Shown here: positions 41,584-59,114 of the stretch, one piece after another | Position numbering within the stretch: position 1 is the first letter of the stretch | How the letters are laid out: every line of letters starts with the position of its first letter | Assembly: GCA_965217295.1 (NCBI GenBank) | Contig: CBDCHR010000007.1 | Coordinates: forward strand, 8,258 to 72,257 | Length of the DNA: 64,000 nt | Direction of reading: 5' to 3' | Source of the DNA: Cyclobacteriaceae bacterium | Lineage (GTDB): Bacteria > Bacteroidota > Bacteroidia > Cytophagales > Cyclobacteriaceae | The notes under the pieces: model-generated | Seen by the model: only the letters and a program-made list of their open reading frames with translations | Database searches by the model: none | What the model was told of the DNA's origin: nothing | Position numbers and translations under genes: made by a program

Positions 41584-41591
41584 ACTCTCCC

Positions 41592-42230: not shown

Positions 42231-42320
42231 GCCGCGAGGCTACCATGCTGACATGGTAGCCGTAAAGCATGTTGACAGTCCAGCATGTAAACATGCTATC
42301 ATGCTAACATGGCAACATGC
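42228..42320. repeat. Centromere/operator array of CATG boxes in 8-bp phase
   Basis: CATG at 42228, 42244, 42252, 42268, 42284, 42292, 42300, 42308, 42316. Confidence 0.8.
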
Positions 42321-42731
42321 TCTTCTCCGACCGCGTACGGGGTTCTGCCCGAAACAGCCCCAGGAAAGGCGGGTTTTGGGGTGTCAAACGGCAAAGCGCA
42401 GGACGCCAAAGCTTGGACCGCCACGTTAGGCGTGAGTCAGTTCGAAGTGCTCCAAACCCGCTGGGACGAAGCCGCGGCGCGGCGCTACTTGCAACTCGTG
42501 TGCAGCTCGGCCTGGACGTTGCCCTGCGGCGTGGGGCTGCTCGAGTACGCCCTGACCGCCCTGGAGCGGACCGTGTATCCCGAGGACCTCATGGTCGTGG
42601 TGCGGGGCGTGCAGGCCGACCCGCAACTTCTCAGGGGAATGGCCTCGGAGAGTGGCGAGAGTCTGGAGCGCTTACGGCTCCAGGTCACGCCGGCGTGGAT
42701 AGCGTCATACTGGGCAGGGGAGAGCGCGTGA
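42309..42731 (+). CDS. Hypothetical protein
   Basis: TGcTATCAT 6 nt before the ATG; stop overlaps the next gene. Confidence 0.55.
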   Translation: MATCSSPTAYGVLPETAPGKAGFGVSNGKAQDAKAWTATLGVSQFEVLQTRWDEAAARRYLQLVCSSAWTLPCGVGLLEYALTALERTVYPEDLMVVVRGVQADPQLLRGMASESGESLERLRLQVTPAWIASYWAGESA

Positions 42732-43030
42732 GCGCGCGGCGCAAGGGCAAGACCAACCCCTACCCGCGCAAACGCTACCGGGGCCACCTGTCCTACCGGC
42801 ACCGCGACGTGGCCGCGTTGCTGCTGGGACGACCCTTGAAGCCGGAGGAGGTCGTCCACCACAAAAACGGCGACCGCGACGACTACCACCCGGACAACTT
42901 AGGTGTGTTCTCGAGCACCTCGGCCCACGCGCGCTACCACCACTACGTCGCCCGGGAAGCGAGCGGCGTGCAGCACCTGTTCAGTCTCGAAGCGTGGCTG
43001 GCGGCGCACGGCGAAAAGGTCGTGCGCTGA
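42728..43030 (+). CDS. Small HNH endonuclease
   Basis: GTG start; VVHHKNGDRDDYHPDNL...HARYH. Confidence 0.8.
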   Translation: MSARRKGKTNPYPRKRYRGHLSYRHRDVAALLLGRPLKPEEVVHHKNGDRDDYHPDNLGVFSSTSAHARYHHYVAREASGVQHLFSLEAWLAAHGEKVVR

Positions 43031-43082
43031 GTGAAGCTGCTCCGTTGACCCCCAAGTTGCCGCGCCCTATGCTGGAGGCCCC

Positions 43083-43778
43083 ATGCTGACGCTCAAACAA
43101 CCCGACGAGTTTAGGGGTGGTGACCCGGAAGGCAGAGCCGTGGCCCACGCCAGCTTCGACGTGCAAAACGCGCTCAGAGGGGCCGAAAACAAGAAGGGGC
43201 TCGTGTTTCTGCATGACCTGAGGCTCGAGCACGAGGGTGAAACAGCCTGGATTGACCACCTCATCTTGCACCGCCACGGGTTGGTGCTGATTGAAAGCCG
43301 CACCTGTAGCAAAGACTTCCAGTGCGACGGCCAGCTGTGGTTCCGCCGCGACGGCGAGGCCTGGCGGGAAGTACCCTCCCCCGTCGTGCGCCTGCAACGC
43401 TACCGCGACCTCGTACTCACCCTGTTGCACGAGGCCGAGGCGTTTCTGCTCGAGCGACCCCGCAACTTAGCCGCCCGGCTAACCGTCGACCTGTACGTGT
43501 CGGTGGCGACCGGCGTGCCCTGTGACGTCGACCTGTCCAACTTAGGAGCGGTCGTCAGGGCCAGCGAGTTGCACGACCTGTTGCGCTCGCAACTGCTCAC
43601 CTACGCGGTGGCCGAGGGTGTCAACCCGTTGGGGCTCGAGGTCAAACTCTGCCCTACCGAACTCGAGCGTGTGGGGATATACCTGCTCAAGCAGCACCGG
43701 GCTCTGCCACTGGGGACGAAGTTCTCGCAAGCAGGCTTGCAAGGGTACTTTCGGCCCAGCAAGAGCATCCGTTCTTGA
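43083..43778 (+). CDS. NERD nuclease-related domain protein
   Basis: FLHDLRL, WIDHLILHRHGLVLIES, SPVVRL. Confidence 0.75.
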   Translation: MLTLKQPDEFRGGDPEGRAVAHASFDVQNALRGAENKKGLVFLHDLRLEHEGETAWIDHLILHRHGLVLIESRTCSKDFQCDGQLWFRRDGEAWREVPSPVVRLQRYRDLVLTLLHEAEAFLLERPRNLAARLTVDLYVSVATGVPCDVDLSNLGAVVRASELHDLLRSQLLTYAVAEGVNPLGLEVKLCPTELERVGIYLLKQHRALPLGTKFSQAGLQGYFRPSKSIRS

Positions 43779-44038
43779 GACGTTCCGATTGCTTGAGAAA
43801 AATGCAGGCCGTACAAGCCCTGGTAGCAGCACCTTTGCGGTGGCTTGTTCCCGCCACGGTTCGCTTCGACCACGCATCCTGGATTGTGACCATCACCGCA
43901 GTCAAGGGGCGGACCCCTTTGATGCACCTGCCCTCACACAACTTGGCCGTGTTTGATGTGCTGCCGTGAACCGTTTGGTGGTATAATCGGATGTTAGCGG
44001 CGGAACCAAGCCGTCTGTTCGCGTGAAAGGACCAGCCT

Positions 44039-44257
44039 ATGCGCACCACCGTATCCATCGAAGACGAGGCCTTTGAAGACCTGCTGCGCTTGAGCGGCGA
44101 AGCCAACCGTACCCGGGCGGTGCAGGTCGCCGTCGAGTTTTACAACCGGCGCAAGAAGCTGGAGCAGCTGCTAGCCCTGCGCGGTACGCTGGACATCGTC
44201 GGTACGGAAGCGCTCGACCAAGCGGACTTAGCAGAGCAGCAGCGGCTTGAGCGCTAA
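44039..44257 (+). CDS. vapB: VapB-family antitoxin
   Basis: MRTTVSIEDEAF...AVQVAV; directly upstream of a PIN toxin. Confidence 0.85.
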   Translation: MRTTVSIEDEAFEDLLRLSGEANRTRAVQVAVEFYNRRKKLEQLLALRGTLDIVGTEALDQADLAEQQRLER

Positions 44258-44660
44258 AGTCTTGGCCGACACGGACGCGTGGATTGCCTTTTTCAGGTCC
44301 AACCGGGGGGAGCCGCCACAGCGTGAGCTGGCGGACGCCCTCGCGCAGCTCATCTCAGAAGACCGAGTGGTGCTTTGCGGCGTGGTGGAGTTGGAACTGT
44401 TGCAGGGTCTACGTGAGGGGGAGCGGAAAGCTCTGGAGACGGCGTTGTCGGCCCTGGAGTTTGCGCCGACGAGCCGGGAAGACTTTCAAACGGCCGGTGA
44501 GCTGTTGGGCGGCTTACGGCGGCGCGGCGTGACCCTTCCCGTGACGGACGGAATCATCGCCGCGCAGTGTCTGCGGCGCGGCTTGGTCCTGTTGGAGAAC
44601 GACAAGCACTTTGCACACATCGAAGGGTTGCAGCGCCATGCGTGGCGCGCAGAGGGGTGA
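44247..44660 (+). CDS. vapC: VapC PIN-domain toxin
   Basis: LADTDAWI, ELELLQG, DGIIAAQ, ENDKHF; TTG start. Confidence 0.9.
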   Translation: MSAKVLADTDAWIAFFRSNRGEPPQRELADALAQLISEDRVVLCGVVELELLQGLREGERKALETALSALEFAPTSREDFQTAGELLGGLRRRGVTLPVTDGIIAAQCLRRGLVLLENDKHFAHIEGLQRHAWRAEG

Positions 44661-44823
44661 GCCCTTTCGCATCGAGCCGGAAACTTACCAGGTTCGAACG
44701 GCGCTCTTTCATCCCGCTGACAGTGTGGCGGGGAGCCTGCCGCCGTATCGAAAAGAGCCGCTTGCTTTGCCAAGCCAAGGAGCTTGTAAGGCCGCTTTTA
44801 GCCGTCCCAGACACGCTTTTTGC

Positions 44824-44852
44824 TTGACTTACCTTAAAATTTAAGGTACACT
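44824..44852 (+). promoter_or_regulatory. Sigma70-type promoter with palindromic operator in the spacer
   Basis: TTGACT-N17-TACACT; overlapping ACCTTAAAATTTAAGGT near-palindrome. Confidence 0.7.
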
Positions 44853-44956
44853 GAGGCATCTATTTAAGGAGGTAGGCACGAGCCGACAACAGGCAAGGGT
44901 CGCGCGACATTCCACTGCGCACGCGACCCTCAAAGACCCCAGCGAAGGAGTTACCT

Positions 44957-45289
44957 GTGGAGTTAAGTTTAGCTTTAGCGTATAGGTTTTTCAAGCGCCC
45001 GCCCAAAGTGAACCCGCTACCCCTCAATCCTCTGAGCGGTTTGTTTTGCGCCTACCTCGAGGCGGTGAAACGTTCTTGCCCCGTTGAAGCCGAAAGGTTG
45101 GCCGACGCCATCGCGCTCGCCCTGGTCGATGCGCGGGCGTTACGCCTACGCCGTGTCTGTGTGGCATACCTGCGCCGTGGCGCTGAGGTGCATGAAGACA
45201 CCCTCAAGGCGCTCGAGCAGCGCGGCGTCACCCTTACACAACGCGAAGTTCGTCACGGCGTGTTCGTCTACGCCGGTTTGGAGGCGTGA
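44957..45289 (+). CDS. Hypothetical protein
   Basis: SD AAGGAG before the GTG. Confidence 0.55.
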   Translation: MELSLALAYRFFKRPPKVNPLPLNPLSGLFCAYLEAVKRSCPVEAERLADAIALALVDARALRLRRVCVAYLRRGAEVHEDTLKALEQRGVTLTQREVRHGVFVYAGLEA

Positions 45290-45293
45290 AGCG

Positions 45294-47120
45294 ATGCCAG
45301 CGACTACGAGCAACCGTAAAAGTAAAGCAGTCAAGTCGAGAGGCAAGGCAAAAGGGGAGAGCGAGCCGAAAGCAGAGGCGCAAGACCCCCAAGCCACCGA
45401 AACTCTCAATCGCCCCTTCAAGGACTTTTATCCTTCCAAGTTGAACCCGCGCAAGAAGTACGACCCTGTTGCCCTAGCTGAGTTGGCCGCGTCGATTTAC
45501 AGCCAGGGTGTGTTGCAATCGGTCGTGGCTAGGGAAACCCCGGAAGGCTTGGAGATTGCCGCTGGGTCGCGCCGCTACCTGGCGGTGCAAAAGCTTGTCG
45601 AACAGGGGAGAGTCACCGAAAACTTCCCCATTCCCGTACAAATACGGCAACTGAGCGCCCTCGAGCTGCTGGACATCGCCACCGCCGAGAACGTCGCCCG
45701 CCAGGACATGCACCCCTTGGAAGAGGCCGACGCCTTCGCCGGGCTGGTCGCTTTGGGCGCTGACGCGGCCTCAGTCGCCGCGCAATACGGTTACACGCTG
45801 CAAACGGTGCAGCAACGGCTGAGGTTGGCGCAAGGGCTCTCAGAGGCCGTCAGGGCGGCTTATTGGGAGGGCGAGCTGACCTTGGGCCAGGTGCAGCAGC
45901 TCTCGGCGGCGAGTCCCGCCCTGCAAGACCACTTGTTAGAGCGAATCCAGGAAAGCAAGCACGACCGCTGGGGTAACCAGTGGACGCCGGGGGACATCAA
46001 AGAGTTTCTGGCAGACCAACTCATCCCGGTTAGAAGCGCGCTGTTCGACCTGAACGAGTACAAGGGCGAAATCACCAACGACCTGTTCGGAGACAGCGAG
46101 CCTTGCTTTTGCGACACCGACCAGGCGCGTGCGTTGCAGCTAGCAGCTTACGAAGCGCTTAAAGCCAAGCTCGAGCAAACTTGGGCCTGGGTCGAGACGG
46201 TCAAGCCCTATCAGTACCCGTCCTACCGCTTTGAGACGCCCGAGGAAGGAGAGACGCCCGACCCGACGACGATGGGCGCACTCATTACCGTGGACGACCA
46301 CACCTGGGAAGTCCAAAGTTTTGAAGGTATCAAGCGAGTAGGGGAGAGGAGGGGGGTAGGGGAAAGCGCCCCCTCGGAAAGCGTGACGCCGAGCGTCAAA
46401 CAAGAGCGCGTCAAGCAACCCAAAGACCACTTCACGGGAAAACACTTGGAAGAAGCGCACCGCCTCAAAACGCTCGCCTTGCAGGACAAGCTGGTAGAAA
46501 GTTACCGCACTTGCCTCATCCTCAACATCATGGGGATGCTGGGCATCAAAAGCGTCGCCGTGAGTGCCGAACGCGACTCTGTCACTCAGCAAGTCGCAGG
46601 GGAGAGCGCGGGACTCGCCGCCGTATTTGCCGAGCACGGTGAACTGGCAGCGTTCTCGAGCTACCCACGGGACAGCTACCCCTTGCGGGTCAGCACTTAC
46701 GACCCAGAGCGCGAGCTTGAGGTTTACAACCACCTCAAAGCGCTGGACGATACCTCGCTGAGCAGCCTGTTTTCAGCCCTCACCGCTTACAGCTACGGCA
46801 CCTGGCCGGTTCGAGAGACGGGGGACAGTCCGTTAGCCGTGCAAATTGCAAAAGATGTGGGCGTGGACATGCTCGACGCTTTTGCGCTCGACGCTGAATT
46901 TTTGAGCATGTACCGCAAGGCGCAACTCCCTACCCTCGCTCGTGAGGTGGGCATCCCCTACAACGTCGAGGGCATGAAAACGGACGCCATGCACGCGGTC
47001 ATCCTCGACCACGCTTCACGTCGTAAGTACGTGCCGGGTCTGGCGCAGTTCTTCGCTCGAGGCGAGACGCCGCCAGAGGGCGTGGCCGAGTTGTTCGAGT
47101 CAGTCGCGCAAGCGGCGTAA
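45294..47120 (+). CDS. ParB/Spo0J-like protein with long C-terminal region (leading-region type)
   Basis: NPRK, LAASI..QGVLQSV, AGSRR, ENVARQDMHPLEEA, HTH. Confidence 0.88.
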   Translation: MPATTSNRKSKAVKSRGKAKGESEPKAEAQDPQATETLNRPFKDFYPSKLNPRKKYDPVALAELAASIYSQGVLQSVVARETPEGLEIAAGSRRYLAVQKLVEQGRVTENFPIPVQIRQLSALELLDIATAENVARQDMHPLEEADAFAGLVALGADAASVAAQYGYTLQTVQQRLRLAQGLSEAVRAAYWEGELTLGQVQQLSAASPALQDHLLERIQESKHDRWGNQWTPGDIKEFLADQLIPVRSALFDLNEYKGEITNDLFGDSEPCFCDTDQARALQLAAYEALKAKLEQTWAWVETVKPYQYPSYRFETPEEGETPDPTTMGALITVDDHTWEVQSFEGIKRVGERRGVGESAPSESVTPSVKQERVKQPKDHFTGKHLEEAHRLKTLALQDKLVESYRTCLILNIMGMLGIKSVAVSAERDSVTQQVAGESAGLAAVFAEHGELAAFSSYPRDSYPLRVSTYDPERELEVYNHLKALDDTSLSSLFSALTAYSYGTWPVRETGDSPLAVQIAKDVGVDMLDAFALDAEFLSMYRKAQLPTLAREVGIPYNVEGMKTDAMHAVILDHASRRKYVPGLAQFFARGETPPEGVAELFESVAQAA

Positions 47121-47452
47121 ATCTCTCACGGGAGTACCCCACCAAGGGTGCTCCCAAAGCGGTTCGTCCCTGAAAGTGGGCCTACGGTCGGGTCACTGTG
47201 TCCTCGTTCAGCGCTACCACACCCGCCCTCCGGCCCACCGGCCCGGCCCTACGGGCAACAGAGTCCTCTTTTGGCGGCTGCGCCACTACGGGCCGGGCCT
47301 CGGCCCCACAGCTTGCAGTGGAGGGCTGCCACGGCGGGGCCGGAAAGCCTTTAATGCAGACGGACTCGAGTTTAAAATAGGGACGCTTATAGCTCACTAG
47401 GGCATAACCACAGCCAAGGTCAAAGACAAAAGCCCAGGCAAGGTGAAAACGC

Positions 47453-47663
47453 CGCTGCGCGCCTCCGGGCGAGGCCGGTCGCGCCTGCATTTTGAGCTGC
47501 TTAATGCCACGAGAACCTTAGCACAGAACCTGGAGAACCGCTTACGCTCTGTCAAGCCGAAAAGCGTGGCTTGACAGTTCTCCAGAACCGTGTGCTAAGA
47601 ACCTCTTAGGCATACGCGGCTCTAAAAATGCAGGCACTCTAACCCCGGCCTCGCCCTGCAGCG
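47453..47663. promoter_or_regulatory. Long imperfect inverted repeat; candidate ssDNA (Frpo/ssi-like) promoter
   Basis: Nested arms GGGCGAGGCCGG/CCGGCCTCGCCC, CCTGCATTTT/AAAATGCAGG, CTTAGCACA/TGTGCTAAG, CTGGAGAAC/GTTCTCCAG, CTGTCAAGCC/GGCTTGACAG. Confidence 0.6.
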
Positions 47664-47814
47664 CTCCACTCCCTGATGACGCTCCTCAGTGCAAACGTCC
47701 CTACTTTTGCTGGCCCAAAAGTAGGCAAAAGGGCCAGGCTCCACGGATAAAAATGCAAGTCTAGTAGACTCAAGATAGATTAAGATTTTGTTCGTACTAC
47801 ACGGCATAAACTAC

Positions 47815-47844
47815 TTGACAATACTATGATAATAAGAGTAAAAT
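47815..47844 (+). promoter_or_regulatory. Sigma70-type promoter
   Basis: TTGACA-N18-TAAAAT. Confidence 0.65.
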
Positions 47845-48079
47845 AAAGACAGTTAAGGGAAACCTTGCGAGTACATTGACAATCAGCCGAGTGACCCAAT
47901 CGGGCCAAACCCTAAACGGGCGTCGAACAGAAAGGAGGTGTAGGGATTCGGCGTTGTTTAAGTGCGGGGGGCAACCTGAGCGACAAGCTTGGTGACGAGG
48001 AAGAAAAAACAAGGCTGTGCAAACTTTGGACGGCAAGCACAGCCCCAGCCATTCCAACCCAGTGAGGAAAGGAACGCTT

Positions 48080-48340
48080 ATGAACAACTTAGCAGGAATT
48101 TTAGAGGCTGACAAGGCCGTGCAACTTGTGCGCGACGGTCAGGATGTCGTCGTCATGAGCGGCGGTAAACACTTGGGCTACGCCCGCCACTGGCGCGACA
48201 CCCGCAGAGGCAAGAGCGGCTTTGTAGCGACCGCCTACCAAGCACCCCCGGACGAGGGCGGCGCGGCGGGCATCGACTTTGAAGTCAAGAAGCTCAGAGA
48301 CGGCCTAGCCTTTATTCGGCGTGAGGGGGTGGCGCTTTGA
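48080..48340 (+). CDS. Hypothetical protein
   Basis: SD AAAGGA; coupled to the next ORF. Confidence 0.6.
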   Translation: MNNLAGILEADKAVQLVRDGQDVVVMSGGKHLGYARHWRDTRRGKSGFVATAYQAPPDEGGAAGIDFEVKKLRDGLAFIRREGVAL

Positions 48341-48684
48341 GCGCCGCTCCGACCGCTCAACAGTTCACGCAAGCCTCGCGCACCCTGCAAGGGGCGCGCA
48401 CGGTGTACCGGGACGATGCCAACGCGCTGGCAAAAGCGAAGTACGACCTCGAGACCAAGAAGGTGCCGCTGCTCGTCGCCGGGGTGCAGGGAGCCAACCA
48501 AGAGAAGCGCGAAGCGACGCTCAGGCAAAAGCTCGAGGCCGAGTACAAAAAGGTTCACGAGGCTGAAAAAACCCTCACCGACGCGAGAACCGAACTCGAG
48601 AACGCCGTAACGGTTTGGGACTGCCTGCGCTACCAGTTGCGTCTGGCCGAGGTCGAAACCGCCGAACTGTTGAGGGCCGCATGA
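48337..48684 (+). CDS. Helical coiled-coil hypothetical protein
   Basis: Overlapping start/stop on both sides; QGANQEKREATLR segment. Confidence 0.65.
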   Translation: MSAAPTAQQFTQASRTLQGARTVYRDDANALAKAKYDLETKKVPLLVAGVQGANQEKREATLRQKLEAEYKKVHEAEKTLTDARTELENAVTVWDCLRYQLRLAEVETAELLRAA

Positions 48685-48917
48685 TACGGGGGGCGCTGGC
48701 CCCCCTCACCCTTGCCGAGTGCGGCGCGTGCGAGGGCGAGGGCTACCGGCTCGTCTGCGCCGGGACACCAGTCGAAACGCACCTCATCTGCGTCACCTGC
48801 GGCGGCGAAGGACGCCTAGAGGTCTGCGAAGGTTGCGGCGAAGTGCCGAGGGTGGTGCGCGGGCTCGAGCTGTGCAACTGCGTGGCGGAGGGCGTAGCGC
48901 TGGCGGTGGCGGCATGA
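48681..48917 (+). CDS. Small Cys-rich (DnaJ-like zinc-finger) protein
   Basis: CGACEGEG, CVTCGGEG, CEGCG repeats. Confidence 0.6.
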   Translation: MIRGALAPLTLAECGACEGEGYRLVCAGTPVETHLICVTCGGEGRLEVCEGCGEVPRVVRGLELCNCVAEGVALAVAA

Positions 48918-49741
48918 ACGGCACCCGCCCCGGCGCGCCCGAGCTGCTGGCGGAGAACGTCGCAAAGTTGCTGGACTCTGAAACCTACAAAGCGGCGCTT
49001 AGAATGCGTAAACGCTTTCACCGCTACAGCTTCCGTAACGTGTGGCTCATCTACTGCCAGAACCCCCACGCCTCGCACGTCGCGGGCTATCAAGTTTGGA
49101 AAGCCTGCGGCCGTCAGGTCAAAAAAGGCGAGCAGGGCTTGAGAATCTTAGCGCCCCTTACCAAACGAAACGACGCCGGAGACGCGGAACTATTCGGCTT
49201 CAAAACGGCGAGCGTGTTCGACGTGGCGCAGACCGAGGGCGAGGCGTTACCGGAAACGCCCAAGCCTGAACCGCTCACCGAGGACGACCCGCGTATACCG
49301 GGCTTGTTGAGCCGCCTCGAGCGTTTTGCCCAGAGCAACGGCAACCGGCTTGAGTACAAAACGCTCACCGGCTCGTGTCACGGCTTTTTCAGACCCTCAA
49401 GCGGTGACATCATGATTAGCGACGACCTACCGCCGCTCGAGACGCTTGCAACCCTCATCCACGAAATCGCTCATAGCCTCGCGCACGGCGACACCAAGAC
49501 CTCGCGCAGTGTGGCGGAACTCGAGGCCGAGTCTTGCGCTTTCTTAGTCTGTGACGCGCTCGGACTCGACACCTCGCGGAGTTCATTTGCTTACCTTGCC
49601 GACTGGACGGACAACCCCGAGCAGGTTCTGCCCGCTGCCCAGCACGCCGCGAAGCTGTCCGACCGCATCCTGGAGGCTCTAACCGAGCCTCCCCCCATTC
49701 CCCCGGAGGCTCATGATGTGCGTGTACTTGTTGCACATTGA
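48914..49741 (+). CDS. ArdC-like ssDNA-binding / antirestriction protein with HExxH metallopeptidase-like domain
   Basis: FHRYSFRNVWLI, VAGYQVWK, VKKGEQG, VFDVAQT, TLIHEIAH, ELEAES. Confidence 0.85.
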   Translation: MNGTRPGAPELLAENVAKLLDSETYKAALRMRKRFHRYSFRNVWLIYCQNPHASHVAGYQVWKACGRQVKKGEQGLRILAPLTKRNDAGDAELFGFKTASVFDVAQTEGEALPETPKPEPLTEDDPRIPGLLSRLERFAQSNGNRLEYKTLTGSCHGFFRPSSGDIMISDDLPPLETLATLIHEIAHSLAHGDTKTSRSVAELEAESCAFLVCDALGLDTSRSSFAYLADWTDNPEQVLPAAQHAAKLSDRILEALTEPPPIPPEAHDVRVLVAH

Positions 49742-50012
49742 GCCGCCATACCGCCACGCTTCTCATTACACCGGCTACGCCCAGGACGGCGACCCGGAAA
49801 GAAGGCTGAGGGAGCACAAACGGGGCCGGGGTAGCCCGCTCGTATACGCCGCGGTCGAAGCGGGCTGTGAGGTGAGCGTCGTGCGGACGTGGCAGGGTGG
49901 CAGGGTGCTCGAGCGCAAGCTGAAAAGGCGCAAGAACGCACCCTGTCTGTGCCCCCGTTGTAACCCGGTGAGCGCGTTTCACAACGCCGTTTTCGAGGCG
50001 GGTGGCGCATAG
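49713..50012 (+). CDS. Small GIY-YIG-like endonuclease
   Basis: VYLLH...HYTG...RRLREH...ERKLK, CPRC. Confidence 0.7.
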   Translation: MMCVYLLHIEPPYRHASHYTGYAQDGDPERRLREHKRGRGSPLVYAAVEAGCEVSVVRTWQGGRVLERKLKRRKNAPCLCPRCNPVSAFHNAVFEAGGA

Positions 50013-50024
50013 AGCACGTAAAAC

Positions 50025-50054
50025 GTGTGGAGAGGTCTCGAGACCTCTCCACAC
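50025..50054. repeat. Perfect 30-bp palindrome
   Basis: GTGTGGAGAGGTCTC|GAGACCTCTCCACAC. Confidence 0.9.
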
Positions 50055-50147
50055 CTTTCCCCTTTTTTAGCAAGGCTCAGGAAAGGCAGGTGCGCGGTGC
50101 AAGGCTTACCCAAGACATGTCAGGGCCGCGCTTCTTTGGCCCTGCGT

Positions 50148-50399
50148 ATGATGTCCCAGGCTCAATACGACAGCAGCTTGCTGGACACGAAGGTGTTCGC
50201 GTTGCTGTTCGACGGCGTGGCCGGGGCCAAGGTGCTTAGGCGCGTCAACGAGCGGCTTTGTCGAGACGTGGCGTTGGCAAGAGTGGTGCTCTCTCCCGAG
50301 GTGAGCGTCCACCTCGACGCCAGCACACTTACAGCAGCCAAACAAGCGCAGGCCGAGGATACCCAGCCAAGTCTGTTTCCGTGGTTGGCGGCGGCTTGA
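50148..50399 (+). CDS. Hypothetical protein
   Basis: Plausible ORF in the co-directional run; start uncertain. Confidence 0.4.
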   Translation: MMSQAQYDSSLLDTKVFALLFDGVAGAKVLRRVNERLCRDVALARVVLSPEVSVHLDASTLTAAKQAQAEDTQPSLFPWLAAA

Positions 50400-50446
50400 A
50401 CCACCAAACTCACGGGGGCCGCGCATCCTGACAAAGACGGAGGAAC

Positions 50447-50887
50447 ATGGCAACGTATCAAGGTAAAAGGCTCGAGCCGCTGAACGTCGAAGTCACGGTG
50501 GACGGCCAACCGCTACCCCCGCGCAACGACTTGAAAAACCACAGCCCGGACGGGTTCGAGTGGGGCTACGGGGGCAGCGGTCCGGCGCAGCTTGCGCTCG
50601 CCCTCCTAGCCCACCACTTCGGCCAGGACGGTAGCGGGCGGGTGGCGGACAAGAAAGCGCTGGCGCTTTATCAAGCGTTCAAAGCCAAGCTCGTGGCCGG
50701 GCTGCCCAAGGAAGGCTGGACATTGGAGGCGCACGTGATAGACGACACGGTGGCGATGGTCGTCGCCGAACACGCCAGTAGCTCTTTCGAGCGCATGATT
50801 CAACTCGAAGTGTTCTATGAGGCTTTGGAGGAGGAGTACAGCGCAGCACTCGACAGGTTGGAGGTGCTGGAAGACCCTGCCGAGTAA
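50447..50887 (+). CDS. DUF6166-like protein
   Basis: NHSPDGFEWGYGGSGPAQLALALL; SD GGAGG. Confidence 0.75.
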   Translation: MATYQGKRLEPLNVEVTVDGQPLPPRNDLKNHSPDGFEWGYGGSGPAQLALALLAHHFGQDGSGRVADKKALALYQAFKAKLVAGLPKEGWTLEAHVIDDTVAMVVAEHASSSFERMIQLEVFYEALEEEYSAALDRLEVLEDPAE

Positions 50888-50933
50888 AGGGTGTGGGTGT
50901 TCAGCTTTCGACACCTGAAAGGAGAGAACGGCC

Positions 50934-51134
50934 GTGAACGAAACCGAGGTGAAAGACAGCAAACCCAAAAACCTGACCCGTTGTGAGGTCTGCGGCTCGG
51001 AACGCATCCACGTTTATCCGTCCGACGCGCCAGCGCAGCGTCGGGCGCTCTGTCTCCGGTGCGGCGCACACTATGACGAACGGAGCGGCTGGCTGGACCC
51101 GGAGGCTTACTACGTCGTCCCTCGACTTGGCTAA
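50934..51134 (+). CDS. Small zinc-ribbon protein
   Basis: CEVC...CLRC; SD AGGAG. Confidence 0.55.
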   Translation: MNETEVKDSKPKNLTRCEVCGSERIHVYPSDAPAQRRALCLRCGAHYDERSGWLDPEAYYVVPRLG

Positions 51135-51135
51135 A

Positions 51136-51594
51136 ATGCGGGGCGTGACCCATGCAACCAAGCTGCTTTACTTGTACCTGCTCTCCAGGGGCCGCTCGGA
51201 ACTGTCCGCGCCGGCGTTGTCGGCGCGTCTTGGCCTAAGCACGCCTACCGTCCACAAGGCGAAGCAAGACCTGAGAGACGAACACCTGCTGGCCGAGCAC
51301 ACCCCCTACGTCGGCGCGACGAGCGTCTTAGAGGCCGTGGCCGACGAGACGTTCAAAGACTGGCCGCGCCTTAAGCGGCGCAAGCGCGAGTTGCCCAAGG
51401 CAGTCCTTGAAACGCCTATCGCCTCGCGGCTCGTCTGGCTGTACCTGTCGGGCGTGGACGACGCCCAAACCCTCGCCGACCTTGCCGAGGCCCTGGACGT
51501 GCCCTACATGACGGTGTACCGGGGCGTCGGACCTTTGAAGCCGTACCTGGACATTGTCGGCGAGAAACCCATGTACCTGAAACTGGCAGCATAA
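51136..51594 (+). CDS. Tandem winged-HTH DNA-binding protein
   Basis: KLLYLYL..LSAPALSARLGLSTPTV and RLVWLYL..LADLAEALDVPYMTVYR. Confidence 0.7.
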   Translation: MRGVTHATKLLYLYLLSRGRSELSAPALSARLGLSTPTVHKAKQDLRDEHLLAEHTPYVGATSVLEAVADETFKDWPRLKRRKRELPKAVLETPIASRLVWLYLSGVDDAQTLADLAEALDVPYMTVYRGVGPLKPYLDIVGEKPMYLKLAA

Positions 51595-51630
51595 ACGCGG
51601 GTTTCCTCGTCCCAAAGGGGAATTCTCGAG

Positions 51631-51660
51631 TTGACAAGACAGCTACATAGAGGATAAAAT
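51631..51660 (+). promoter_or_regulatory. Sigma70-type promoter
   Basis: TTGACA-N18-TAAAAT, same layout as 47815. Confidence 0.65.
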
Positions 51661-51688
51661 AATGTATCGAGAAGAGAAAGGTGAGGGT

Positions 51689-52198
51689 ATGGACAGCCTC
51701 TTTCGACACCGGGACACGCGGCTCGACTTGGAAGTCTGTCGCCTCAAGGACGACGCGGTGCTGGCGGTGAGTTACTACAAGGTCTCGGGCGGGCTGAAGT
51801 ACCTCGTCTGGCGCTACGAAAGCGTGGACCTGGTGAAGATAACGGCCAACGCCGCACGCTGGGGAATTTTTTCCAAGCGCCCTTACCAGCCGGGGCAAGG
51901 CTGCGATGGTTCCGTGAATGACTGCGCGCTGGCCCTGTTCGTTTACGCCTGCCGGGGTTTCGGCCTGGACCCCGAGGCGGTGTACCAGGCGGCTTATGAG
52001 GGTGAAACGTTGGCAAGCGCCTACGACGGCGACCTGCTCGCTTTTGCCCGGTGGCAAGGCTTGAACGTGCCGAGGGTATGGGGCGAGGCTGCTTTCGATC
52101 AAGTCTGCGCGTCCCTCCACGCGGTCAACTATCATTATCTGGCACAGGTGTTCGAAGAGCATAAGGAGGGGGTATGGACCTCGACTTGGGCAGCTTGA
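51689..52198 (+). CDS. Hypothetical protein
   Basis: SD-like GGTGAGG; host-like codons. Confidence 0.65.
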   Translation: MDSLFRHRDTRLDLEVCRLKDDAVLAVSYYKVSGGLKYLVWRYESVDLVKITANAARWGIFSKRPYQPGQGCDGSVNDCALALFVYACRGFGLDPEAVYQAAYEGETLASAYDGDLLAFARWQGLNVPRVWGEAAFDQVCASLHAVNYHYLAQVFEEHKEGVWTSTWAA

Positions 52199-52467
52199 AC
52201 CTTGAACAGAAACAGCGCTTGCGAAACGCCATCGACGCGGCGCGCGCGCGGGGAGCCTGGTCCTCCCAGCGTGACCGGCACGTGCAGGCGTTCGAGCTGT
52301 GCTACCTCGACGGTTTGACCTTTGAAGAAGCGGCTGAACACATCAGCGCCCTCGACCACGGCGGGCCGGTCACCCGCCAGCGTGTCGGTCAACTGCGGGA
52401 CAGTGGCGAGAAGCTCCTGCGGGCGGTGCTCGCCAAGGAAGACGGCCGAGATGCAGATGAAGCCTAA
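52174..52467 (+). CDS. Sigma-region-4-like HTH protein
   Basis: FELCYLDGLTFEEAAEHI...VTRQRVGQL. Confidence 0.7.
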   Translation: MDLDLGSLNLEQKQRLRNAIDAARARGAWSSQRDRHVQAFELCYLDGLTFEEAAEHISALDHGGPVTRQRVGQLRDSGEKLLRAVLAKEDGRDADEA

Positions 52468-53755
52468 CGCCAGCCACGACCGAGCGCTCCTCGAGCAAGC
52501 TGCTAAGACGAGCCGCTGGTTTGCGGACAAGCGGAGTGAGTGGCTCGAGTACATCGACACCAAGGGCGCACTCAGCGAGCGGATGCGCGAGAGCGCGCAA
52601 CGCGAGGTCCACTTTCGCAAGGCCCTCGAGGTCGCCGACGTCCGCATGCTGGTCGACGCCCATTACCCCGTGGCCAAGGTCGATTTGAGCCGTTCCAAAC
52701 AGCGCATCAAAGCGGTGTGGCGCGGTGGCGACGGCCTGAACGTCGTCCTCGACCCCAAAGGGTTATACGACTTCGTGACAGGCGAGTCCTACGGTGCCTT
52801 GACCTTTCTGACGCGGGTCGTTGGTTTGAGTGTGGAAGCGGCCAAGGAGGAACTGCTTTACTGCGCGGGCTACAGCAGCACCAAACCCCAACATACGACG
52901 ACGGCGACTCAGTTCAGCGCCGCACCCAAAGCGCCTTTTGCGGCCGACCTGCGCCGAGAAGTCTGGCTCGAGCAGCAGTTCGAAGACGCCGTCGCCCTTC
53001 ACCGCCAGGGGAAGCTGTCGGGCGTCAGCGGCTACTTGAAACGAAAGGGCGTGAGCGACGCCCTGTTTCGTCACCACGTTCGGGGACAAGCGGTTTACGC
53101 TGTGGACGACTTTGGCGGGTTCGTGCAGGTGCCCATCCAGACCTTCTCAGGTGAAACCATCGGCTACCAGCGCCTCTACAACCACGCCTGCTTGCAACGG
53201 AAGTACGACCCCGAACCCAGGGACAAGGACTTTATCGGCCGCACCCAGGGCGGTTTCGTCGCGCTCGTGCCCAAGGCGCTCGGGACGCTGCCCGAGGACG
53301 GCGCGGCCTTGGGTCGCTGCTTACGGCAAGGCTACACGCTGAGCTTGTGCGAAGGTATAGCCACCGGCCTGAGCGTCTGCCTGGCGCGGCCCGAGAGTGT
53401 CATGCTCTGCGCGCTCACCGCGAACAACCTAGTGCCGGTGGTTGAGGGTCTTCGGGCGCACTACGGTTACCTTGGCGGACGGCCCCATTGGTTTGCACGG
53501 CGAACCCGCTTGAACATCACCATCTGGGCCGACGATGACCAGTGGAGCAAGGACGCAACAGGCAAAAAAGTCCCCGTTCCCAAACAGGGCGAACCCAACG
53601 CCGGGCGGGAGAAAGCGCTTCAAGCGGCGGACAGGGGAGAGGCCGGTGTGTACTTCCCGGTGTTCGACCAGCGCCACTGGCCGCACCTCCCCACCGACTT
53701 CAACGATTTGCACCGGCTCGAGGGCGTGGAGGCGGTGCAGCGTGCGAGACGGTGA
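52451..53755 (+). CDS. Toprim-domain DNA primase (TraC-like)
   Basis: LCEGIATG, ALTANNL, IWADDD, TDFNDL. Confidence 0.85.
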   Translation: MQMKPNASHDRALLEQAAKTSRWFADKRSEWLEYIDTKGALSERMRESAQREVHFRKALEVADVRMLVDAHYPVAKVDLSRSKQRIKAVWRGGDGLNVVLDPKGLYDFVTGESYGALTFLTRVVGLSVEAAKEELLYCAGYSSTKPQHTTTATQFSAAPKAPFAADLRREVWLEQQFEDAVALHRQGKLSGVSGYLKRKGVSDALFRHHVRGQAVYAVDDFGGFVQVPIQTFSGETIGYQRLYNHACLQRKYDPEPRDKDFIGRTQGGFVALVPKALGTLPEDGAALGRCLRQGYTLSLCEGIATGLSVCLARPESVMLCALTANNLVPVVEGLRAHYGYLGGRPHWFARRTRLNITIWADDDQWSKDATGKKVPVPKQGEPNAGREKALQAADRGEAGVYFPVFDQRHWPHLPTDFNDLHRLEGVEAVQRARR

Positions 53756-53851
53756 GGTGAGGAACCGAAAGCCCCTGGGCCGGTCCGCTGTGACCTCTGC
53801 GCTTGCAAACGCGACCACGTCTAAATCAAACGACCGACGAAGGAGCACTTC

Positions 53852-54409
53852 ATGAATGTCAGGAGCGAAAGCCCCCCAGCCGACACGCCCACCGATTCGA
53901 CCCCGGAGCTACCCCGCACCGTCCAGGAAGTCCTCACCGTGGTGAAAAGCATCCTGCCCGACGACCTCGTGCCCACGCTCCTCTTGGAAACCGAAGAAGG
54001 CTTGGCTATGGGTGGCGTGGCGGAGTTTTTCACGTCTTCCCACACCAAAGCGCGCCTGGCGGCTTACGTCAAAGGCCTTATCGACGCGGCACCCAGCCCG
54101 GTGCGGGCGGCCACGCTCGTCGTCGAAGCCTGGCTGAGCGCCTATCAGCCCACGAACGGCGCGCCGAGTACAGCCTATGTCGCCCCCAGCCAAGACCCCG
54201 AGCGCCGCGAGGTTGTGCTGGTGTACCACGAAACGCCTCACGGCTTCGAGACCTTCACCTTCTTGCTCGAGAACCGCCAGCTCGGCCTACGCCTGAAACC
54301 CGAGGGTGCCCACGACATGCGTTGGAACTTTTTCAGGGGCACCGACCGCATCCTCGAGCCGGACGGCCTGACCCCGGTGGACCTCACGCCCGGCTCCTTG
54401 GACGCGTGA
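53852..54409 (+). CDS. Hypothetical protein
   Basis: SD AAGGAG. Confidence 0.65.
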   Translation: MNVRSESPPADTPTDSTPELPRTVQEVLTVVKSILPDDLVPTLLLETEEGLAMGGVAEFFTSSHTKARLAAYVKGLIDAAPSPVRAATLVVEAWLSAYQPTNGAPSTAYVAPSQDPERREVVLVYHETPHGFETFTFLLENRQLGLRLKPEGAHDMRWNFFRGTDRILEPDGLTPVDLTPGSLDA

Positions 54410-54754
54410 CCTGCACGGCGACTGCGGCGCGCGCTAGGTTGAGTGTGGGCTAGCTGTGGAGGACGTTTGACCGTGCCGCCGACAAACAGCGCTATTCATC
54501 TGGCTTAGAGCGGGTCGCTGGGACAAGGAGAAGCGCGCGCTTACCTCGGGACATCGAGCCTGCTCTCTCGTCCCCAAGGGTTAAGTTTGGCGCACGACGC
54601 CTCCGGTGCGGCCGGGGTCTTCGTTCCGTCTTCGCTCCACTCGACCCCTGTTTACGCGGCTTGCGTTTTGTCAAATAGACTTCTTGTAACAGCAGTCTCG
54701 GTAGCCCACGTTACTCCGTTTCCGTGCTAAAATAATTCCAGAAATGGAGCTTTC

Positions 54755-55198
54755 ATGGAAGCTTTTATCCCCACAGGAACGCCAAATCCCCTCCCTGGCA
54801 CTCGGCTGTTAGCGCTGGAGGCCGACAGCAGTCTCGAAATCATTGAGCAGCTCGAGCAGGGACTCAGCCCGACCAGTGTCGAACGCTTGGCCCGGCACCT
54901 GGACTTACCCCTCACCCAAGTACTCGAGCTGGCCGACCTCAGGAGCAGCACCTTCTTCGAAACCAAAAAGCGCCGCCGTCGCTTGAACCCGGAAGCTTCA
55001 GGTCGCGTTTACCGACTCGCCAAGGTGGTCGAAGCAGCGGAGAGCTACTTTGAAGACCAAGCAGCCGCCCGGCGCTGGCTCGCCCATCCCAAGGTGGCGC
55101 TCGGCGGCAAAGTCCCGCTCAGCTTCGCGCGCAGTGCCGAAGGCGCGGACTACGTGGTCAAGCTCCTGGGGCGCATGGCGCACGGCGTGGTGTCCTGA
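54755..55198 (+). CDS. Xre/MbcA/ParS-family antitoxin
   Basis: HTH plus WLAHPKVALGGKVPL...GVVS C-terminus. Confidence 0.9.
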   Translation: MEAFIPTGTPNPLPGTRLLALEADSSLEIIEQLEQGLSPTSVERLARHLDLPLTQVLELADLRSSTFFETKKRRRRLNPEASGRVYRLAKVVEAAESYFEDQAAARRWLAHPKVALGGKVPLSFARSAEGADYVVKLLGRMAHGVVS

Positions 55199-55677
55199 AG
55201 GCATACCGGATTTCAGAAGCACGGTTTCCAGACACCATGAGCGGCCAGGGGGCTTACCTCTACGGTGGCCGCTGGAACAGCCCCGAACACCGGGTGGTCT
55301 ATGCCAGCGGCAACCTCACCCTGGCGATGCTCGAGGTGCTCATTCACATCGACGACGCCGAGGCGTTTCTTAATAAAGCATATGTCTACCACGCGGTCGA
55401 GTTCGACGAGGCGGACGTGGCTGTACTGGCGGCTGCGTCCCTCCCCACAGGCTGGAACGCCCGGCCCGAGACGCGCGCCTCACAAAGTGTCGGCGACGAG
55501 TTCTTGGAGCGGGCGGCGGGCGTGGTGCTCGCGGTGCCGAGCGTGGTGGTGCCGAGCAGTTTGCTCTACGACCCGCTCTACATGACCTACCTCATCAACC
55601 CGGTGCAGCCCGAGTACGCGCGGGTGGTTGCGGTTGGGGAGGTTCAGGCGTTGGACTGGGACCCGCGGTTGACCTAG
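55195..55677 (+). CDS. RES-domain toxin (probable CTG start at 55195)
   Basis: AYRI...SGQGAYLYGGRWNS, VYAS, AMLEVL, VPS, YLINP. Confidence 0.88.
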   Translation: MKAYRISEARFPDTMSGQGAYLYGGRWNSPEHRVVYASGNLTLAMLEVLIHIDDAEAFLNKAYVYHAVEFDEADVAVLAAASLPTGWNARPETRASQSVGDEFLERAAGVVLAVPSVVVPSSLLYDPLYMTYLINPVQPEYARVVAVGEVQALDWDPRLT

Positions 55678-55781
55678 GCGAGGTAAAGAGCAGGCAGCTG
55701 CCGACCGGCGAGACGTTGCTCGATCTTGACCGGTGCCGACAACCCGCTTACGATGGTTTCATCCTGAGAAGAGGTGTCAGC

Positions 55782-56357
55782 GTGAGCAACCTTGCCAAAC
55801 CCCTGCAAAGCCTCCGCGAGCTGACCGAAGGATTCAAAGGGGAATTTGAAAAACACGTGCGACGTGTTTACGCTCGTCACGGTGGCCTGCTGATTCTGGC
55901 GGATGTCTCGGCGAGCATGGCCGAGCGCGCCGGGGAGAGCAGCAAACACGAGGTACTGAAAGAGGTGCTGTCAGCCGTGCTCAGGCCGGGGGACGGCCTT
56001 ATCGCCTTTGCAGGCCGACCGCTACGCCTCGCCAGGGCGGCGGACCTGCCCGCCCCTTTGGGCGGCACCGCGCTCGAGCTGGCCTTGAGCGAGGCCGTCA
56101 AGACTCAGCCCGAGGTGACCCTGGTGATTTCGGACGGGCAGCCGCGTCACGCCGAGGCTGCTTTGAGCGAGGCGGGCAAACTCAAGGGCGTCGTCAACGT
56201 CGTCTACTGCGGACCCGACGACGACCTCGCGGCGATTGCTTTTATGCGTCAGTTGGCAGCGCAAGGAGGCGGGCGCTGCTGGGTTTACGACCTGCGGCGC
56301 GAAGCGGCCCGCACGCAGCTCGAAGCGGGCGTCCGGGGGGCGCTTCTTCCGGGTTGA
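55782..56357 (+). CDS. vWA-domain protein
   Basis: MIDAS motif DVSASM, GGT, ISDG. Confidence 0.82.
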   Translation: MSNLAKPLQSLRELTEGFKGEFEKHVRRVYARHGGLLILADVSASMAERAGESSKHEVLKEVLSAVLRPGDGLIAFAGRPLRLARAADLPAPLGGTALELALSEAVKTQPEVTLVISDGQPRHAEAALSEAGKLKGVVNVVYCGPDDDLAAIAFMRQLAAQGGGRCWVYDLRREAARTQLEAGVRGALLPG

Positions 56358-56827: not shown

Positions 56828-57175
56828 TCAGCTCGACCCATCAGGGGGCGCGTCGTCGAGCGGAGCGGACTCGCCGGCTGCCTCGTCCGAAGACTCGGGG
56901 TTAGGGAACCCTGAGCGCTGCCGGTAAGCCTCTACCTCCGGGAACAGCTCGAGCTGGCGTTTGGTCGTGACGTAGCTGTCGAGCAGCGGCATGAGGCGTG
57001 CAGCGTCGAGCGCTCCTTTCTCTTTATCAAGTTCGCTCAAGACGGCCGCGCCGACGGTGCGACAGCGTTCGTCGTGGCGTTGGGCCACAAGAAGGTCGCG
57101 CTTTTTCCTAGCCTCTTGTAAGCGCTGCTCGAGCACTTCGACTTCTTCGATGACCGTGTCCAACTTTGGGGGCAT
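56828..57175 (-). CDS. MobC/TraD-like small mobilisation protein
   Basis: Coiled coil, RTVGAAVL, LLDSYVTTKRQLELF; next to oriT. Confidence 0.55.
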   Translation of the reverse strand: MPPKLDTVIEEVEVLEQRLQEARKKRDLLVAQRHDERCRTVGAAVLSELDKEKGALDAARLMPLLDSYVTTKRQLELFPEVEAYRQRSGFPNPESSDEAAGESAPLDDAPPDGSS

Positions 57176-57539: not shown

Positions 57540-57611
57540 CGCAGGACGAAGCCTCGGGAAAACACGGACTCTGGGAGGCCGCCATTCCAGCGGCTCCGGC
57601 TTCGTCCTGCG
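57540..57611. other. 14-bp inverted repeat just inside the leading side of oriT
   Basis: CGCAGGACGAAGCC ... GGCTTCGTCCTGCG. Confidence 0.65.
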
Positions 57612-59112: not shown

Positions 59113-59114
59113 AG

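Follow-up and report, generated by a model that had tools for sequence, protein, structure and literature searches.

Conjugative elements with characterised MOB-P, MOB-Q or MOB-F systems deliver their relaxase gene to the recipient last. On MOB-P plasmids, the DNA 3′ of the nic site enters first, and the inverted repeat, which lies 5′ of nic, is transferred last together with the relaxase gene. ArdC of the IncW plasmid R388 is an anti-restriction protein, a metalloprotease that binds single-stranded DNA (ssDNA). We analysed a stretch of 64,000 nucleotides (the window; positions 8258-72257 of contig C7 in assembly G000) and conclude that its part between 42.3 and 57.75 kb, a block of genes beside a candidate origin of transfer (oriT), is probably the leading, or first-transferred, region of a conjugative plasmid of ~94 kb.

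Leading regions are where anti-defence and establishment genes are currently sought, and the data are almost all enterobacterial. The gene families enriched there use the transferred strand (T-strand) as template, are often preceded by Frpo-type hairpins and include anti-defence genes (Samuel et al. 2024; PMC11541004); toxin-antitoxin (TA) genes are reported to be enriched as well (PMC11541004). The leading region of F holds Frpo1 and Frpo2, and the YfjB/HerB protein is reported to be zygotically induced and to reprogram the host (2026 preprint; PMC13370423). Single-strand promoters of the Frpo and ssi type, classes 1-3, are described from F, ColIb-P9 and pESBL (Masai and Arai 1997, cited in PMC11541004; PMC12672017), and in pESBL and F the mining of hairpins has yielded validated ssDNA promoters (PMC12672017). 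The block described here is a clear example of this already described layout, cleanly delimited and from a barely studied plasmid group.

Candidate oriT and predicted polarity of transfer

The window lies on a 93.6-kb plasmid-like contig (C7; GC 0.576) in an eight-contig assembly with a 6.26-Mb chromosome of GC 0.536. A sister replicon of 61 kb (C3) carries a syntenic copy of window positions 42755-64000 at 82-98% nucleotide identity, and because this copy exists we could test for selection from the ratio of nonsynonymous to synonymous substitution rates (dN/dS, or omega). Genes were called from the periodicity of GC content at third codon positions (GC3), from dN/dS between C7 and C3, and from three-frame dN/dS against C3, L009 and L010, the latter two being metagenomic relatives of the block from a single ENA sample. 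The features at the oriT end of the block are the following.

57754-57788, minus strand: candidate oriT core, RP4-like, with an 8-bp inverted repeat, a 6-nt spacer and the nic motif TATCCTG/C (the slash marks nic)
57961-61001, plus strand: genes for a ribbon-helix-helix (RHH) protein, a 212-aa relaxase-like protein and a VirD4/TraG coupling protein (T4CP), predicted to be transferred last
56828-57175, minus strand: gene for a 115-aa protein, helical by inspection, omega 0.16

Read along the minus strand from 57788 to 57754, the core is TGGCATAG-aagcc-CTATGCCA-gccctt-ATCCTG/C. The copy on C3 deviates only in the hairpin loop and at one spacer base, with the same stem and nic motif, and the wider oriT region of 520 nt is 97% identical between C7 and C3. 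At the same position L010 carries GCAAGATAAGGG, with one mismatch, though its relaxase is only 42% identical. The nic motif has its weight because an inverted repeat adjoins it, because it lies 200 bp upstream of the RHH, relaxase and T4CP genes, and because it is conserved in C3. When MOB-P logic is applied to this layout, in which the inverted repeat stands 5′ of nic, on the same side as the relaxase gene, the DNA to the left of 57754 would lead and the minus strand would be the template of its plus-strand genes. An earlier sequence-only reading of this DNA had likewise placed nic on the minus strand, with the DNA left of 57754 entering first, and the geometry points the same way.

In Pfam, the products of the transfer genes match RHH_5 and T4SS-DNA_transf (7.8e-33). 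The relaxase-like protein matches NCBIfam RlxS with its N-terminus (1.3e-9; 37 bits against a threshold of 850), and Tyr 49 (AYYYM) and H135, H141, H144, H146 and H148 (His cluster HTEHGHVH) are invariant among three homologues that are 35-43% identical to the window protein, in keeping with the catalytic Tyr and three-His metal cluster of MOB-P and MOB-Q relaxases. No relaxase of this kind was found in the 60 relatives of the host that were searched, and an alignment search matched only Deinococcus rufus. The 115-aa gene, the sole gene on the minus strand, sits between the block and oriT at a position equivalent to that of the minus-strand SLT gene of F and of a 100-aa minus-strand gene of L010; it lies just beyond the range of the sequence-only reading and had been missed there.

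Other repeats were seen on both sides of nic. A perfect 14-bp inverted repeat (CGCAGGACGAAGCC ... GGCTTCGTCCTGCG) at 57540-57611 lies 150-200 nt inside the predicted leading end. The stretch around it is moderately structured (z score -3.5), and C3 has one uncompensated change here. The repeat might serve as an additional single-strand signal. Repeated GACACGTCG and GTCACGTCG boxes at 57770-57960, which separate the nic hairpin from the RHH gene's promoter (TTGACA-N18-TAGTAT), are candidate binding sites of the RHH accessory protein.

Orientation of the genes in the block

All supported genes from ~42740 to 56357 are on the plus strand (~22 genes, validated by GC3, dN/dS and three-frame tests), and we found no minus-strand gene among them. 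With the minus strand as the predicted T-strand, every validated gene between 42.7 and 56.4 kb would have the T-strand as its template. Two minus-strand open reading frames (ORFs), at 42485-42889 and 52135-52647, pass the GC3 test; they were rejected because they overlap plus-strand frames with omega of 0.07-0.2 or have an omega of ~1 themselves.

The sequence-only reading had held that every credible gene from 42309 onward is on the plus strand and points at oriT, which is borne out from ~42740. It had also singled out ten small ORFs. Eight of these are real genes (44957, 48080, 48337, 48681, 50148, 50447, 51689 and 53852; omega 0.06-0.4), orf42309 is unsupported and orf50934 is equivocal. 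Its internal starts at 48080, 48681, 50148 and 51689 coincide with independent gene calls in L009, and the known types that it listed (ArdC-like, ParB-like, TA pairs, primase) are present by Pfam, with the Toprim hit below the cut-off. Three genes had been missed: an HNH gene at ~42740-43030, a GIY-YIG-like gene at 49713-50012 and orf52174.

The ParB-like gene, the ArdC operon and the candidate signals between them

The central part of the block contains the following features.

44957-45289, plus strand: orf44957, 110 aa, conserved partner of the ParB-like gene, present in C3 and L010
45285-47120, plus strand: large ParB-like protein of ~611 aa, YfjB/HerB-like, with Pfam ParB_N and HTH_ParB
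47121-48079, no strand: conserved 960-nt non-coding region between the ParB-like gene and orf48080
47459-47664, minus strand (the predicted transferred strand): 205-nt imperfect hairpin, candidate ssDNA promoter or priming signal
47815-47844, plus strand: near-consensus duplex promoter TTGACA-N18-TAAAAT, 11 of 12 positions, ahead of orf48080
48080-48340, plus strand: orf48080, 86 aa, first gene of the ArdC operon, omega 0.10
48337-48684, plus strand: orf48337, 115 aa, helical by inspection, omega 0.18
48681-48917, plus strand: 78-aa Cys-rich CxxCxGxG zinc-finger-like protein, omega 0.16-0.22 in frame 0 only
48914-49741, plus strand: ArdC-like protein with both domains of ArdC, an N-terminal ssDNA-binding-type domain and an HExxH peptidase
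49713-50012, plus strand: 99-aa GIY-YIG-like protein, Pfam GIY-YIG 19 bits (cut-off 22.6)
50148-50399, plus strand: orf50148, 83 aa or longer, omega 0.19, with a 70% homologue beside ArdC in genome G250
50447-50887, plus strand: DUF6166 protein, 146 aa, acidic, Pfam DUF6166 1.3e-26
50934-51134, plus strand: orf50934, 66 aa, equivocal, omega ~0.5 on ~18 changes
51136-51594, plus strand: winged helix-turn-helix (HTH) protein, 152 aa, candidate regulator, Pfam HTH_IclR and HTH_11
51689-52198, plus strand: orf51689, 169 aa, omega 0.14, only three homologous clusters
52174-52467, plus strand: orf52174, 97 aa, sigma-70 region-4-like HTH, omega 0.07-0.08 on 26 synonymous changes
52451-53755, plus strand: Toprim-domain protein, 434 aa, primase-like, Toprim_3 24.4 bits (cut-off 27.2)
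53852-54409, plus strand: orf53852, 185 aa, isoelectric point 4.7, omega 0.18, 90-94% identical in C3, L009 and L010

In orf44957, constraint is confined to frame 0 (omega 0.22-0.38), the other frames having omega >1 and stops. The ParB_N and HTH_ParB domains of the adjoining ParB-like protein occupy its N-terminal third, at residues ~46-225 (113-292 of the scanned 678-aa ORF). This protein matches TIGR03734 (PRTRC_parB) at 8e-34 and is 28% identical to YfjB of the F plasmid over residues 4-303 (E 1e-18), where its GSRR box aligns with GGRR of F; no significant alignment with YfjB extends past residue 303. Among 1887 matching PLSDB records, 1133 are conjugative plasmids.

The 960-nt region that follows is nearly invariant in C7, C3, L009 and L010, whereas the flanking genes differ by 15-20%; the frame test, which covered 47148-47400 of this gap, found no frame under constraint. 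The hairpin within it has a folding free energy of -68.2 kcal/mol (z score -8.2), and none of 200 shuffled sequences folded equally well. It is the sole strong outlier among six intergenic gaps that we folded, is present in one copy per replicon, is conserved in all four elements and lies directly downstream of the ParB-like gene and upstream of the ArdC operon. On the predicted T-strand its 3′ arm carries TTGACA, an 11-nt bulge, N18 and TAAGGT (TAGGGT in L009), a spacing that requires the bulge to be looped out. In size and energy it resembles the ssDNA-promoter hairpins mined from pESBL and F (PMC12672017). A blastn comparison with the F leading region returned only chance matches of 13-17 nt and no homology. 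Rfam assigned no family to the hairpin, its only match being a spurious one to a plant miRNA precursor.

The duplex promoter at 47815-47844 is kept in the four elements, with TATAAT in L010. Across the block, 12 sigma-70-type duplex promoters were found against 1.8 expected, and near-consensus ones precede orf48080, orf51689 (51631-51660) and the RHH gene. Because such promoters are enriched, most units would need duplex DNA, and their early expression could be derepression; only a single unit is a plausible candidate for expression from ssDNA.

Within the operon, the ArdC-like gene is the only block gene that resembles a known anti-defence protein. Its product scores above cut-off for ArdcN (PF08401; 31.7 bits, cut-off 22.6) and DUF6782 (29.1 bits, cut-off 27) and has a HEIAH motif; it has homologues in 46 of 301 Deinococcota genomes (E <= 1e-5, 31-55% identical) and no sequence match in the PDB. 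One genome that came up in this search, G312, is unpublished, and no conclusion here draws on it. Its neighbours recur beside it elsewhere: homologues of orf48337 (42-47%) adjoin ArdC-like genes in the Deinococcota genomes G292 and G260, and a 49% homologue of the zinc-finger-like protein, whose L009 counterpart faintly matches DnaJ_CXXCXGXG, is encoded directly upstream of ArdC in G209. The first gene, orf48080, is 86-96% identical at the amino acid level in C3, L009 and L010 and gave no family match and no Atlas lead. The GIY-YIG-like gene (omega 0.11) is conserved in all four elements, and an N-terminal extension of orf50148 from 50025 may also be coding (omega ~0.2).

The DUF6166 protein has 7339 homologues, many of them encoded upstream of PRTRC cassettes. 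On two ENA metagenome contigs (L005 and L006), close DUF6166 homologues head one-way arrays of small genes that end in PRTRC_E, Prok_Ub, E2 and ThiF, and in one of the two an ArdC gene, with ArdcN and MPTase-PolyVal, lies at the locus edge. Foldseek, which the sequence-only reading had proposed as a check, found no structural neighbour of DUF6166: an AlphaFold2 (AF2) model with a predicted local distance difference test (pLDDT) score of 89.7 had no match at E <1 in the PDB or BFVD.

For orf50934, the other frames hold stops, and it is called as a gene in L009. The winged-HTH protein is 96-98% identical in C3 and L009 and 36% identical in L010. Both orf51689 and orf53852 belong to tiny families. 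The former has an invariant motif, RP(Y/F)Q-x-GQGCDGS...C; its assignment as a C39-like cysteine peptidase, a weak Atlas lead, was rejected because the candidate catalytic His is not conserved. For orf53852, an exhaustive HMMER search gave only weak, unannotated relatives, the AF2 model (pLDDT 44) was too poor to search, and Atlas found a resemblance to phage hypothetical proteins with low recognition. The product of orf52174 weakly matches Sigma70_r4_2. In the Toprim protein the motifs CEGIATGLS and WADDD are invariant and support the sub-threshold Pfam match; no relative was found in the genome contigs or JGI metagenomes that were searched. No Pfam, PHROG, PADLOC or NCBIfam family linked to anti-defence matched the small ORFs, and PHROGs, PADLOC and NCBIfam returned nothing for them except for the HNH gene. 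Structure and Atlas searches yielded no usable lead. An anti-defence role of the small ORFs is only weakly suggested.

Conservation and possible exchange of the module

The conserved core consists of orf44957, the ParB-like gene, the hairpin, orf48080, orf48337, the zinc-finger-like, ArdC-like and GIY-YIG-like genes, orf50148, the Toprim gene and orf53852. Core proteins are 62-96% identical in L010, and at least 80% except for four: orf44957 (69%), the zinc-finger-like protein (78%), the GIY-YIG-like protein (79%) and orf50148 (62%). In contrast, the relaxase, T4CP and downstream transfer genes of L010 are only 41-55% identical (relaxase and T4CP 41-42%). The module has the same upstream, co-oriented arrangement there. 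Co-oriented genes upstream of the transfer genes are also found on a Deinococcota chromosome (G209: zinc finger, ArdC, ParB, HTH, RHH, relaxase and T4CP), and a plasmid-like contig (G292) has co-oriented ArdC-like, ParB-like, orf48337-homologous and T4CP genes only. Variation between relatives falls on the VapBC and Xre/RES pairs, the VWA-like gene and the segment from DUF6166 to orf52174.

Because the core is kept in L010 despite the diverged transfer genes, and fragments of it are kept in Deinococcota, the small uncharacterised genes appear to form an establishment module, conserved and exchangeable, and not a pool in rapid flux. That one and the same module accompanies transfer genes so strongly diverged suggests that plasmids exchange establishment functions together, as one unit. 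Leading regions are likewise common to unrelated enterobacterial plasmids. The earlier proposal of a pool of anti-defence genes is supported only in part, by the ArdC-like gene; the small ORFs behave as a backbone module under purifying selection and not as a pool with fast turnover.

Mosaic recombination was seen in C3 14126-20000 when compared with L010 and with window positions 44773-50066. The ParB-proximal non-coding region of C3 is nearly identical to that of L010, unlike that of C7, and from 54.7 kb rightward C3 and C7 share 95-98% identity. Another ArdC-like gene, diverged from the first, is found in related elements (L009 647-1531 and 5030-5905; C3 ~9886-10007), and in L009 it adjoins another PIN gene and Xre/RES set.

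Genes at the two ends of the block

The remaining genes of the block lie to the left of orf44957 and to the right of orf53852.

42309-42731, plus strand: orf42309, 140 aa, doubtful gene, GC3 0.77
42740-43030, plus strand: small HNH endonuclease, start approximate, PHROG HNH families 1e-9
43083-43778, plus strand: NERD (nuclease-related domain) protein, Pfam NERD 1.3e-10, omega 0.15, present in C3 and L010
44039-44660, plus strand: VapB-like antitoxin and PIN toxin, variable cargo, Pfam PIN 1e-13 and a weak VapB match
54755-55677, plus strand: Xre-family antitoxin and RES toxin, variable cargo, Xre_MbcA_ParS_C 2.7e-15 and RES 4.6e-22
55773-56357, plus strand: VWA-like protein, start uncertain, weak VWA_3 and VWA_2 matches below cut-off, shared with C3 only

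We found no homologue of orf42309 in C3, L009, L010 or PLSDB, and no family match. The HNH gene scores 30.6 bits for Pfam HNH_3 (cut-off 24.8) and has an omega of 0.22 against C3. The VapB/PIN pair is absent from the corresponding position in C3, L009 and L010, and the Xre/RES pair is in a different place in L009 and missing from L010.

Replicon setting and restriction-site composition

Relatives of the block were found only in the one ENA sample (L009 and L010) and as short contigs, and megablast of 42-60 kb against PLSDB gave no match. No RNA-seq run was found to contain the locus. The nearest relatives of the relaxase, T4CP and ArdC-like proteins are in Deinococcus plasmids and Deinococcota genomes. 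The chromosome of the assembly has 42 SusD genes and a Shine-Dalgarno motif in ~3% of its long ORFs. Because of these SusD genes and the near absence of Shine-Dalgarno usage, the chromosome is that of a member of the Bacteroidota and not of Deinococcus or Thermus; a comparison of RecA with the PDB gave no clear placement of the host. The backbone of C7 and C3, by contrast, is Deinococcota-like. The block itself uses Shine-Dalgarno sites and TTGACA/TATAAT promoters. The GC content of 0.58, the Deinococcota-like backbone, the Shine-Dalgarno sites and these promoters distinguish C7 and C3 from the chromosome (C8), which suggests either a plasmid that has crossed phyla or a culture that was mixed. 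The choice of Thermus or Deinococcus as test hosts, proposed in the sequence-only reading, is therefore favoured by the relatives of the backbone and disfavoured by the chromosome of the assembly.

The plasmids of the assembly (C1, C2, C3, C5 and C7) are nearly without GGCGCC, GTGCAC, CCATGG, GGGCCC and GAGCTC sites, as are L009 and L010; C7 has no GGCGCC against 56 expected and no GTGCAC against 16 expected. GTGCAC is not avoided in the Deinococcota elements G209 and G292. This pattern looks like passive restriction-site avoidance, and the avoidance common to these plasmids argues that C7 and C3 may circulate in the same hosts as C1 and C2. CTCGAG occurs at ~1.7 per kb on C7 and C3 (157 and 106 sites), whereas C1 has a single site (14 expected) and C2 none (25 expected), so that the two plasmid groups have different histories with an XhoI-type system. 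In the block (42309-56357) there are 2 GATC sites against 17 expected, an observed/expected ratio (O/E) of 0.12 compared with 0.53 for the rest of C7; L010 has 4 against 36. The scarcity of GATC may be a backbone-versus-cargo rather than a leading-versus-lagging property.

Discussion

The gene content, orientation and conservation of the block, its hairpin and the oriT motif can be read directly from the DNA. We infer the polarity, the timing of expression and all protein functions from them, and suggest the following course of events. The relaxase would nick the minus strand at TATCCTG/C (~57755/57754), and that strand would enter 5′-first, with lower coordinates first, and would be the template for every gene of the block. 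It would bring in a conserved establishment module made up of orf44957 and the ParB-like gene, the 960-nt region with its hairpin and promoter, and the operon from orf48080 to orf53852 (orf48080, orf48337, zinc-finger, ArdC-like, GIY-YIG-like, orf50148, then DUF6166, winged HTH, orf51689 and small HTH, followed by Toprim and orf53852), interspersed with presumably exchangeable addiction and accessory genes (HNH, NERD, VapBC, Xre/RES and VWA-like). On the incoming single strand, the hairpin may offer RNA polymerase a duplex-like promoter, a primer or both. The ArdC-like protein may then bind the T-strand and counter restriction, and the Toprim protein may prime the complementary strand. After conversion to duplex DNA, the near-consensus sigma-70 promoters would fire until the HTH and ParB-like regulators accumulate.

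Several findings weigh against this account. The evidence for oriT, nic and polarity is in each case sequence geometry, and YATCCTGY alone occurs at chance level in the window (7 found, 5.0 expected). The relaxase-like protein scores 19.1 bits for Pfam Relaxase, under the cut-off of 24.6, and has no PDB relative. Because the run of plus-strand genes continues through the transfer genes, to ~67.6 kb, co-orientation is not specific to the leading side. No block protein matches a PsiB, methyltransferase, ArdA/KlcA or Acr family, and there is no plasmid SSB on C7 or C3. A strong hairpin stands at one of ~6 transcription units, the others having ordinary duplex promoters, and its four copies are near-identical, too alike for covariation. 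The TTGACA/TATAAT promoters and Shine-Dalgarno sites of the block are a mismatch to the Bacteroidota chromosome of the assembly.

The block might instead consist of ordinary backbone operons for maintenance, regulation and replication priming, with no early-entry or anti-defence role, in which case the hairpin would be a terminator, an operator or a ParB loading site. This would suit the co-orientation over ~25 kb that includes the transfer genes, the consensus duplex promoters at the head of most units, the strong purifying selection and high conservation (omega 0.06-0.4), and the position of the hairpin directly downstream of the ParB-like gene. We regard it as unlikely, since ArdC-like and YfjB/HerB-like genes are hallmarks of leading regions, a 205-nt bulged hairpin with -35/-10-like hexamers is atypical for a terminator or parS, and a separate ParA/RHH partition locus is already present at 41353-42230. 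Still less probable, in our judgement, is a block that serves mainly as offensive or defensive cargo against competing mobile elements, or for addiction, and does not counter host immunity. Three nuclease-type domains (HNH, NERD and GIY-YIG-like) and two TA pairs would be expected of such cargo, but PADLOC had no match for the ten proteins scanned, the TA pairs are the variable parts while the conserved core is not made of nucleases, and TA genes are themselves reported to be enriched in leading regions (PMC11541004).

The reverse polarity, or an oriT elsewhere that would make the block the lagging end, has the chance frequency of the nic motif and the weak family assignment of the relaxase in its favour, together with the fact that no recognisable copy of the nic motif was found in the Deinococcota genome G209. 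Against it stand the geometry of inverted repeat, spacer and nic upstream of the RHH and relaxase genes, with the stem kept and the loop changed in C3, and the position of the relaxase gene, which enters last in the characterised MOB-P, MOB-Q and MOB-F systems, F among them by its layout; we give this possibility very little credence. A leading region thus remains our preferred reading of the block.

A more far-reaching proposal, which we make only tentatively and which is in our view possible but doubtful, is that the hairpin would be a working non-Frpo ssDNA promoter or primer, the first for Deinococcota-type plasmids, that the operon would hold a new anti-restriction or establishment factor acting with ArdC, and that the module would be traded. 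Candidates for such a factor are orf48080, orf48337, the CxxCxGxG protein, orf50148, DUF6166 and orf53852. If all of this were true, the module would be traded between transfer machineries, possibly across phyla, because it decides establishment. The locus offers a few conserved genes validated by selection tests, among them a member of the very widespread DUF6166 family, a single hairpin whose action as an ssDNA promoter is directly testable, and a ParB of the YfjB/HerB-like kind from well beyond the Proteobacteria.

Comparison with known systems

With PRTRC arrays, the block shares a ParB-like protein of the TIGR03734 type (8e-34) and the DUF6166 family, homologues of which lie upstream of PRTRC_E, Prok_Ub, E2 and ThiF. 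In contrast to those arrays, Pfam scans, which covered the proteins of the block, gave no ThiF, E2 or ubiquitin-like match. The ArdC-like protein resembles ArdC of R388 in having ArdcN above cut-off, a C-terminal HExxH motif and a gene in a predicted leading region. It differs in that its peptidase part scores as DUF6782 or M78-like, in that phmmer finds no PDB chain, and in being embedded in a conserved operon with zinc-finger and small genes; any activity of the window protein is predicted from its domains.

The transfer end of the block resembles that of RP4/IncP in design, with an inverted repeat 5′ of YATCCTG/Y, the gene order RHH, relaxase, coupling protein (traJ-traI-traG), a divergent gene on the leading side and a plasmid-encoded primase-like protein (TraC of RP4). 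In contrast to RP4, the 212-aa relaxase of the window comprises no more than the catalytic domain, in which the His cluster reads HTEHGHVH, and the Toprim protein has no relative outside this plasmid group in the collections searched. Like Frpo and ssi elements, the hairpin is long and bulged on the predicted T-strand (~-68 kcal/mol), has TTGACA and, once its bulge is looped out, a suitably spaced TAnnnT on the would-be non-template arm, and lies upstream of genes that appear to be of an early type. It has no sequence homology to them, and a consensus duplex promoter stands 150 nt further downstream.

Compared with F and the islands of Samuel et al., the block is without ssb, psiB, ardA/klcA or a methylase and has only one strong hairpin. 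Its backbone is that of a plasmid group which is Deinococcota-like and has a 212-aa relaxase, and the ParB-like protein is its sole sequence similarity to the F leading region. The organisation parallels that of F (~53.8-66.2 kb of NC_002483): a one-way run of genes toward the candidate oriT with one opposite-strand gene beside it, a ParB-like homologue (YfjB of F, 652 aa), TA genes, an anti-restriction-type gene and a long hairpin on the predicted T-strand before an operon.

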